A DNA stretch of 64,000 nt from the NCBI GenBank assembly GCA_964016885.1, contig OZ024741.1, positions 379,006,001 to 379,070,000 on the forward strand. The letters run 5' to 3'. Below the pieces are notes generated by a model. That model was given only the letters and a program-made list of their open reading frames with translations. It had not been told where the DNA came from and did not search any database. Made by a program: the position numbers and the translations under genes. This document shows positions 54,213 to 55,221 of this stretch, piece by piece; within the stretch, counting starts at the first letter, position 1; each line of letters begins with the position of its first letter. The DNA is from Eledone cirrhosa. Lineage: Eukaryota.

Positions 54213-54299
54213 TGGAAAGTTATACTTAAATTTTTGGGTTACAACTAGTAAATATTTATAACTGATATAAAAGCACTCGACAAGTATTTGGAGTATATT

Positions 54300-54662
54300 T
54301 ACAATATTAAATAAATGGAAACTATATTTATATAACCATATGTATTTCATTATATATATTTCAGGGATATCATATTAACAATATGCTATGCCTTCCTCAG
54401 ACAAAATACAATATAAACAGTTTTATAGATAAATAGATTTGACATACCGTAACAACATCGACTTGTATTTGACTTGCCAATTCAACTTTTCAAATACAAG
54501 TCGATGTTGTTACGGTATGTCAAATCTATTTATCTATAAAACTGTTTATATTGTATTTTGTCTGAGGAAGGCATAGCATATTGTTAATATGATATCCCTG
54601 AAATATATATAAGGAAATAAATATGGTTTTATAAATATATTTTCCGTTTATTTAATATTGTA
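54300..54662. repeat. Long palindrome (173-bp arms, 17-bp spacer) with an HHR in each arm
   Basis: Arms 54300-54472 / 54490-54662. Confidence 0.9.
54341..54410 (-). ncRNA. Type I hammerhead ribozyme, palindrome family
   Basis: Minus: TGTATTTTGT-CTGAGGA-AGGCATAGCATATTGTTAATATGATATCCCT-GAAA-TATATA-TA-ATGAAATACA; mirror copy on plus at 54552-54621. Confidence 0.8.
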
Positions 54663-54898
54663 TTTATATATATATATATTTATATTTATATATATATATA
54701 TATATATTTATATATATATATATTTATATATATATATATATATATTTATATATATATATATATATATATATATATATATATATATTTATATATATATATA
54801 TATATATATATGCAAAGTTTTATTTAAATTGTTGGGTTAACAACGAGTAAATATTTATAACTGATATAAAAGCACTCAACAAGTATTTGGAATATATT

Positions 54899-55221
54899 TA
54901 CGATATTAAATAAATGGAAACTATATTTATAAAACCATATTTATTTCATTATATATATTTCAGGGATATCATGTTAAAAATATGTTATGCCTTCCTCATA
55001 CAAAATACAATATAAACAGTCTTATAAATAGATAGATTCGACATACCTTTCAACTTCGACTTCTATTTGAAAAGTATGTCGAATCTATCTATTTATAAGA
55101 CTGTTTATATTGTATTTTGTCTGAGGAAGGCATAACATATTTTTAATATGATATCCCTGAAATATATATAATGAAATAAATATGGTTTTATAAATATAGT
55201 TTCCATTTATTTAATATCGTA
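54899..55221. repeat. Second long palindrome (~155-bp arms, 13-bp spacer), paralogous to the first
   Basis: Arms 54899-55053 / 55067-55221. Confidence 0.9.
55111..55180 (+). ncRNA. Type I hammerhead ribozyme, palindrome family
   Basis: TGTATTTTGT-CTGAGGA(55121)-AGG...CCT-GAAA-TATATA-TA-ATGAAATA; the mirror copy at 54940-55009 has ATGAGGA (core mutated). Confidence 0.78.

Follow-up and report, generated by a model that had tools for sequence, protein, structure and literature searches.

In L1 retrotransposons, inversions arise by twin priming, in which both target strands prime reverse transcription and the two cDNAs are joined by microhomology. Extension of the second primer begins at an internal site that varies, and the resulting copy consists of two non-overlapping parts. 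Penelope-like elements (PLEs) can leave an inverted, 5'-truncated copy with a tail at one end (PMC8557442), and the same paper names as an open task how PLEs build their inverted repeats and tails. Penelope transcripts begin inside the upstream pLTR (PMC2377424), and the sequence TCACT has been called Inr-like in the pLTR of a rotifer Penelope (PMC3846280). For PAc, a PLE of the Poseidon clade, in vitro work demonstrated that both target strands are nicked and extended from two internal RNA sites bounding the tail; the reaction is independent of hammerhead cleavage, and the PAc protein is predicted to be a dimer (PMC11167929). Marks of the Hydra clade of PLEs are DKT, RW(R/K), CxCX5C and C-terminal CxxC and CxH, as listed by Craig et al. 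2021 (PMC8557442, section 11). A literature search of partial coverage found no paper linking Penelope inverted insertions to twin priming.

Here we analyse two neighboring palindromes in Eledone cirrhosa. We put at about 0.7 the probability that the two palindromes are independent inverted insertions of a Penelope-like element into (TA)n, each of them 5'-truncated and likely formed by twin priming. By itself the locus is ordinary transposon debris; its value lies in the family-wide statistics, which bear on an open mechanistic question.

The palindromes and their parent family

The window is a stretch of 64,000 nt of Eledone cirrhosa (GCA_964016885.1, OZ024741.1:379,006,001-379,070,000, forward strand), and feature coordinates are given as window positions (Table 1). 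Two inverted pairs with a period of 598 bp, P1 (54212-54662) and P2 (54810-55221), lie in a (TA)n microsatellite. In each of them the left arm is on the minus and the right arm on the plus strand with the 5' ends facing the centre, and since these ends meet there the four hammerhead motifs point outward. P1 and P2 are asymmetric, insofar that about 88 nt at the outer end of each left arm are absent from the right arm. The first-pass annotation had reported four hammerhead motifs with three intact cores, as well as variants common to both arms of one palindrome and differing centres, and the sequence bears this out (CTGAGGA...GAAA, the fourth motif having C3 replaced by A). In an alignment of the four arms, which had been proposed as a check, arms were more alike within a palindrome (P1L/P1R 176/190 aligned columns, P2L/P2R 160/164) than the left arms were between palindromes (P1L/P2L 238/260 columns, 91.5%; end columns included throughout). 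Matches of 173 bp were found genome-wide at E 1e-79, a resemblance that is not due to chance.

Table 1. Features of the two palindromes, in window positions
Feature	Position	Strand	Remarks
(TA)n microsatellite, target of both insertions	53173..57555	.	TRF and sequence; 4.4 kb
P1 tail-bearing arm: 3' pLTR end and tail (54212-54299)	54212..54472	-	Inner end ~18 nt short of inferred start site
P1 left hammerhead, type I, core intact (C3 54400)	54339..54412	-	Predicted cut between 54351 and 54350
P1 centre: 2-nt junction joining both 5' ends	54473..54474	.	
P1 tail-less arm	54475..54662	+	Begins 2 nt inside inferred start site, ends at the family's fixed short end
P1 right hammerhead, type I, core intact (C3 54562)	54550..54623	+	Private change at 54613 weakens helix I
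TA repeat separating P1 from P2, 147 bp	54663..54809	.	Sequence
P2 tail-bearing arm, second subfamily	54810..55075	-	Inner end ~12 nt short of inferred start site
P2 left hammerhead motif, core broken (C3 to A, 54999)	54938..55011	-	
P2 tail-less arm	55067..55221	+	Arms joined via 2-9 nt microhomology at 55067-55075
P2 right hammerhead, type I, core intact (C3 55121)	55109..55182	+	Predicted cut after 55170

Judged by their sequence, P1 and P2 are 3'-end stubs, strongly 5'-truncated, of a high-copy 3.8-kb Penelope-like retrotransposon with Hydra-clade motifs, and they are likely dead on arrival. The family is new, and the kind of element is already known. A search with the arm sequence gave 1263 candidates in the 3.0-Gb genome, most of the 40 that were scored being 98% identical. 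Genome-wide, an end motif was joined exactly to (TA)n 4923 times in the case of the short end and 2132 times in that of the tail end of one subfamily group, compared with 0 for the reversed controls. Inverted pairing recurs in the flanks of dispersed copies, with spacers whose length ranges between a few bases and several kb, and the long spacers contain an ORF of 737 aa when whole (L101); all 89 scored matches to this ORF had 96-100% amino acid identity, many of them in frames of about 745 codons. The natural unit measures 3806 bp in L050. Partial tandems make up the pLTRs: in L050, L102-L108, L110, L113 and L120, full units are immediately preceded by a 5'-truncated copy. The 88 extra nt of the long arm follow the unit end in these tandems and precede the ATG, which identifies them as the PLE tail. 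Among the 102 insertions with one tail end and one short end, 61 were below 600 bp, and 31 measured 400-540 bp, like P1 and P2.

The 737-aa protein carries DKT at position 118, RWR at 37 (RWK in most aligned relatives), YRDD, a CxCX5C linker (CNCRDRSKC at 596), CxxC (CDLC at 694), CxH (CKH at 721) and a C-terminal VYNC..YVG..R pattern. Protein relatives numbered 205 at E<=0.001, the best with 39% identity and the nearest named ones from Argonauta hians; the C-terminus of one relative (P0019) equals a row in the accessible text of Figure S7 of PMC8557442. By eye, no CCHH motif was apparent in the putative endonuclease part of an alignment of relatives (A1). Pfam and PDB sequence searches with the ORF matched no domain, and a profile comparison with PLE-like RT was weak (probability 25.8%, E 7e-4). 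Together with the motifs, this weak match points to a candidate RT followed by a putative C-terminal GIY-YIG endonuclease.

Several other members and remnants of the family were observed. Old fragments resembling the C-terminal region of its protein lie at 8640-9428, 1172-1528 and 51782-52048 of the window (tblastn). L032 (2402-6398) is a nearly perfect palindrome with 2-kb arms stopping at the same unit position, and in L305 (C1:133985659-133986157) the palindrome centre is itself repeated with a 223-bp period. L034 and L035 (C3, 7.84-7.85 Mb) lie 8.8 kb apart with an identical centre, one of them without a tail, and are a local duplicate of one insertion. The centres of L260 and L321 have in common a foreign piece of 56-82 nt that ends in a CGAAAC motif and is fused to hammerhead helix II; they possibly represent a chimeric subfamily. 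Elsewhere in the window, broken frames at 14874-17535, 26270-31716 and 41944-43506 resemble a Helitron helicase, LINE pieces and another PLE, as judged by eye.

Inverted insertions across the family

We sampled insertions by end motif along part of contig C1. These numbers should be interpreted with some caution since exact end motifs of 28-29 nt were required and only part of the contig was covered, so that old or direct-only copies are under-counted. A partner end was found in 104 sampled insertions, and 102 of these had one tail end of 88-89 nt and one tail-less end. Starting from the short end (90 of 100 loci), the nearest inverted partner was a tail end with (TA)n at 57 loci and never a short end with TA flank (0/90); 2 partners ran into the element, 1 locus had no anchor, and 30 had no resolved partner, 19 of which were examined over only 1.5 kb. 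Starting from the tail end (60 loci), the partner was a short end at 45 loci and another tail end at 4 (2 insertions), and at 11 none lay within 4.8 kb. Altogether, no partner was found for 41 of 150 sampled anchors, and L050 and L102 had no inverted partner in the DNA examined around them. Exceptions to the rule of one tail per insertion were the 2 tail-tail insertions, the tail-less pair L034 and possibly L118. The first-pass annotation had asked whether the family is palindromic at other loci; it is, with inverted pairs dispersed genome-wide. The small-insertion junctions, those of the window included, were distinct in 63 of 63 cases. Among 61 small insertions, 21 junctions showed microhomology, 9 were blunt and 31 contained inserts, several of the long inserts being copies of an arm end, a spectrum that would be expected of end-joining.

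The inner ends of the arms cluster at a sharp boundary, the A in TTCACTG, which lies 190 nt from the short end. Of 122 small-insertion arms, 37 terminate no more than 2 nt away from this A; 14 stop exactly on it, 31 at 0 to -2, and 10 pass the boundary. The P1 arms fall short of this point (TTC^ACTG) by 18 and 2 nt, the tail-less arm extending further inward than the tail arm, and the P2 arms by 12 and 34 nt. Genome-wide counts of nested patterns in 4-nt steps across the boundary were 1027, 837, 655 and 425 (a 35% drop over 4 nt), to the first drops of which subfamily variants may contribute, and a control step just upstream went from 439 to 427 (3%). From the copy ends and the Inr-like motif, we infer that the A of TTC^ACTG is likely the 5' end of the RNA, i.e. 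the transcription start. The junction insert of L283 consists of the 59 nt that immediately follow the tail, ATG included, which implies internal priming on an RNA that continues into the ORF. Alternatively, twin priming could have started at the 3' pLTR copy and the boundary could reflect stalling of the RT at the edge of a pyrimidine tract. A long CT-rich tract does start just upstream of the boundary, which was read from copy ends. However, the ends are sharp to the base and fall on the very TCACT that was called Inr-like in the rotifer, the loss over the first 4 nt of the tract is only 3%, and a start within the upstream pLTR is what is known of Penelope transcripts. We consider stalling an unlikely explanation.

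Independent snap-back events during reverse transcription had been suggested for P1 and P2. Reverse transcription and independence were supported by our results, whereas snap-back was not. If a strand folds and copies itself, its tail arm cannot stop further out than the tail-less one; the opposite was found in 58 of 102 insertions, and simple snap-back consequently fails. The tail-less arm reached further inward in 35 of the 61 small insertions (reverse in 9, level within 5 nt in 17) and in 23 of the 41 long ones (reverse in 17, unclear in 1), the assignments being weak for L290, L303 and L305. Moreover, the tail arm lay wholly inside the tail in 10 of the 61 small insertions, leaving no sequence common to both arms, and in 11 small insertions the tail-less arm was at the boundary with a tail arm more than 20 nt shorter, the reverse occurring once. 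Given the asymmetry and the arms without common sequence, the arms are best read as two cDNAs, with the caution that central deletions after insertion could blur arm lengths and mimic part of the asymmetry. A more permissive version, in which a cDNA or antisense RNA folds back and copies itself, the endonuclease sets the short end and central deletions make the arms uneven, would account for the single lineage found in both arms, for the 17 level insertions and for the palindrome of L032, and antisense self-priming has been proposed for the rotifer Penelope (PMC3846280). The 11 cases against 1 would nevertheless require one-sided deletions that begin exactly at the centre, and neither the longer tail-less arms nor the 10 insertions without common sequence favor it; we regard this version as improbable, to about the same degree as RT stalling.

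A much weaker case can be made for an assembly or library fold-back chimera. Neither a read nor a contig was found that bridges the P1 or P2 junction (run X1 included). On the other hand, the arms carry private substitutions and have fixed, different outer ends, the 63 small junctions are all distinct and follow one biological rule, and contigs of run X1, which may derive from the source sample, contain same-family inverted joints at other positions. The family-wide rule and the differences between arms make a chimera very unlikely.

P1 and P2 are two independent insertions from different subfamilies. The fold-back pairs and the period of roughly 600 bp noted in the first-pass annotation are real, whereas the duplication it read into them is not. 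P1L and P2L are identical to distant copies at 255/259 and 256/259 positions (98.5-98.8%), closer than to each other, and the variants of P2 define a dispersed subfamily (893 candidates, top non-self matches 97-99%). Local duplication of one palindrome in tandem, with conversion between the arms afterwards, would fit the period and the arms that are more alike within than between palindromes. However, distant copies are closer to each arm than the neighboring palindrome is, and the variants private to P1 or P2 each occur on a single arm (both arms/one arm: P1 0/4, P2 0/2); across 61 insertions, 7 private variants were on both arms and 33 on one. Over 138 nt the arms differed by 0.69 nt within and 5.69 nt between insertions (n=61). 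This comparison of lineages, cores and variants skipped 4 insertions with an unmatched landmark. Variants common to both arms come from the source element, so that conversion, which had also been proposed, is not required, and the dispersal of the subfamilies together with the private variants effectively refutes duplication with conversion. Least credible of all is a foldback DNA transposon or MITE moving as a palindrome: long terminal inverted repeats in TA context and the 31 of 102 insertions of 400-540 bp would suit it, but the ends are unequal, the dispersed copies have no common centre and the longer members encode the RT-endonuclease ORF.

Proposed twin priming, hammerheads and possible read-through RNA

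According to the twin-priming reading, the RT-endonuclease would nick both strands of (TA)n, and one 3' end would prime at the end of the tail, the other 88 nt upstream, on uncleaved RNA. Both templates would come from the same source; one RNA molecule and two would both fit. If priming took place in the 5' pLTR copy of the transcript, no more than 190 and 278 nt could be copied before the cDNAs ran off the 5' end of the RNA at TTC^ACTG, and short palindromes would result. The two cDNA 3' ends would then be trimmed and end-joined head to head by microhomology or with templated inserts, and the hammerheads would be passengers of the pLTR. One observation counts against the parallel with PAc, namely that in our family the target shares short TA microhomology with both ends.

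A more specific model would be obligate twin priming on a single RNA by a dimeric RT-endonuclease at two fixed sites. The downstream enzyme would displace the upstream cDNA, and the copy of these sites in the 5' pLTR would act as a decoy, so that most insertions would become short hammerhead palindromes ending at the transcription start. We offer this model tentatively and would bet slightly against it. A hint in favor of one RNA is that 23 tail arms end between -50 and +45 nt of the second priming site and 8 in the next 89 nt, these windows having been picked after inspection of the data. If true, single-RNA twin priming would explain the inverted pLTRs, the one-sided tail and the mini-palindromes together, against the published antisense self-priming.

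The hammerhead core (CUGANGA/GAAA/NUH) was conserved among 122 arms, with C3 in 120, U4, G5 and A6 in 122, and G8 and A9 in 121; only N7 was free (G60/T32/A30). Helices I, II and the palindromic helix III were paired in 94% of 151 cells, with 4 pairs showing two-sided change, in 9 related rows that were picked by hand, so that the pairing figure should not be taken as a probability. In isolation, the arms had no folding advantage over shuffled sequences (z 0.15-0.62), and none of the four motifs in the window palindromes scored at the gathering threshold of Rfam. On their own, PLE hammerheads are reportedly weak (PMC4209133). The predicted cut lies inside all four window arms, and just 1 arm among the 204 sampled stops no more than 6 nt away from it, which argues that the templates were mostly uncut, as observed in vitro for PAc (PMC11167929). 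Hammerhead-cut templates, which contig joints of run X1 near 54614-54619 had suggested, were rejected on the same count.

The first-pass annotation had predicted that a transcript in either direction would form long dsRNA. This holds in part. Read-through RNA of P1 and P2 is predicted to form a long hairpin with most bases paired (-256.5 and -231.4 kcal/mol), whereas outward transcripts from the centre would contain one arm each and would not be complementary to each other. The long read-through hairpin of P1 or P2 would, in these predicted folds, bury the sense hammerhead. No ADAR signal was seen in the templates, where 2 of 7 arm-shared variants were A>G, a small number. Thousands of palindromes with arms of about 200 bp are likely present in the genome, and all are potential dsRNA on read-through.

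Other hammerhead-like motifs lie in the same window. A 422-bp unit is repeated 2.9 times at 20041-21269, with one minimal motif per unit (minus), and three related CTGAGGA...GAAA motifs about 640 bp apart are found at 38091, 38731 and 39370 (minus). Downstream of a broken PLE-like RT frame (63954-61179, minus) there is an Rfam Hammerhead_1 match at 59491-59535 (plus, 35.3 bits) and another hammerhead-like motif at 59744 (minus).

Comparison with known systems

Thousands of young copies, many with open ORFs, constitute a fossil record of how PLE inverted repeats and tails are formed. Simple fold-back is incompatible with this record, and priming of both strands at two fixed sites agrees with it. 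The record further predicts the transcription start to the base and contains no trace of hammerhead-cut templates. Foldbacks of this kind should not be written off as assembly chimeras.

Compared with L1 twin priming, both priming sites are fixed here, and the arms usually overlap and thus produce palindromes.

The closest relatives appear to be the PLEs of the Hydra clade, which have a C-terminal endonuclease (EN+; PMC8557442), a placement made by motifs. Similarities include DKT, RW(R/K), the CxCX5C linker and C-terminal CxxC and CxH, as well as the pLTR hammerhead, the (TA)n target, partial tandems, the inverted 5'-truncated copy and the tail at one end. However, Hydra-clade elements are generally below 3 kb, compared with 3.8 kb here (3806 bp in L050) including a 3' region of 1.45 kb, and their tail of 30-40 nt contrasts with one of 88-89 nt that lies wholly upstream of the ATG (PMC8557442). 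The family also differs from the clade, as far as the accessible text describes it, in that 61 of 102 sampled insertions are shorter than 600 bp.

PAc of Anolis (Frangieh et al. 2024, PMC11167929) resembles our family in its two fixed internal start sites bounding the tail, its AT-rich target and its dispensable hammerhead cleavage, to which the single arm in 204 ending near the cut corresponds. Its start sites are in the ORF and without target homology, whereas those found here are before the ORF and have short TA microhomology; in the accessible text, neither inverted insertions nor a 5' run-off boundary is linked to the two sites (PMC11167929). The Penelope elements of Drosophila virilis and Adineta vaga (PMC2377424, PMC3846280) also have variable inverted terminal repeats, a transcript start in the upstream pLTR, an Inr-like TCACT and head-to-head junctions. 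These junctions were attributed to antisense self-priming, which the arm lengths presented here contradict as a general route.

Non-LTR retrozymes are similarly short, non-coding, PLE-derived units with a type I hammerhead and a palindromic helix III (bioRxiv 10.64898/2026.07.22.740005; PMC4209133). At 47901-51416 of the window, 11.3 copies of a 310-bp unit, 99% alike and each carrying a single minimal type I hammerhead-like motif (minus), look like such a retrozyme array. According to the accessible parts of the same two sources, retrozymes are head-to-tail tandems, whereas P1, P2 and their relatives are paired head to head, and the centre changes from locus to locus.
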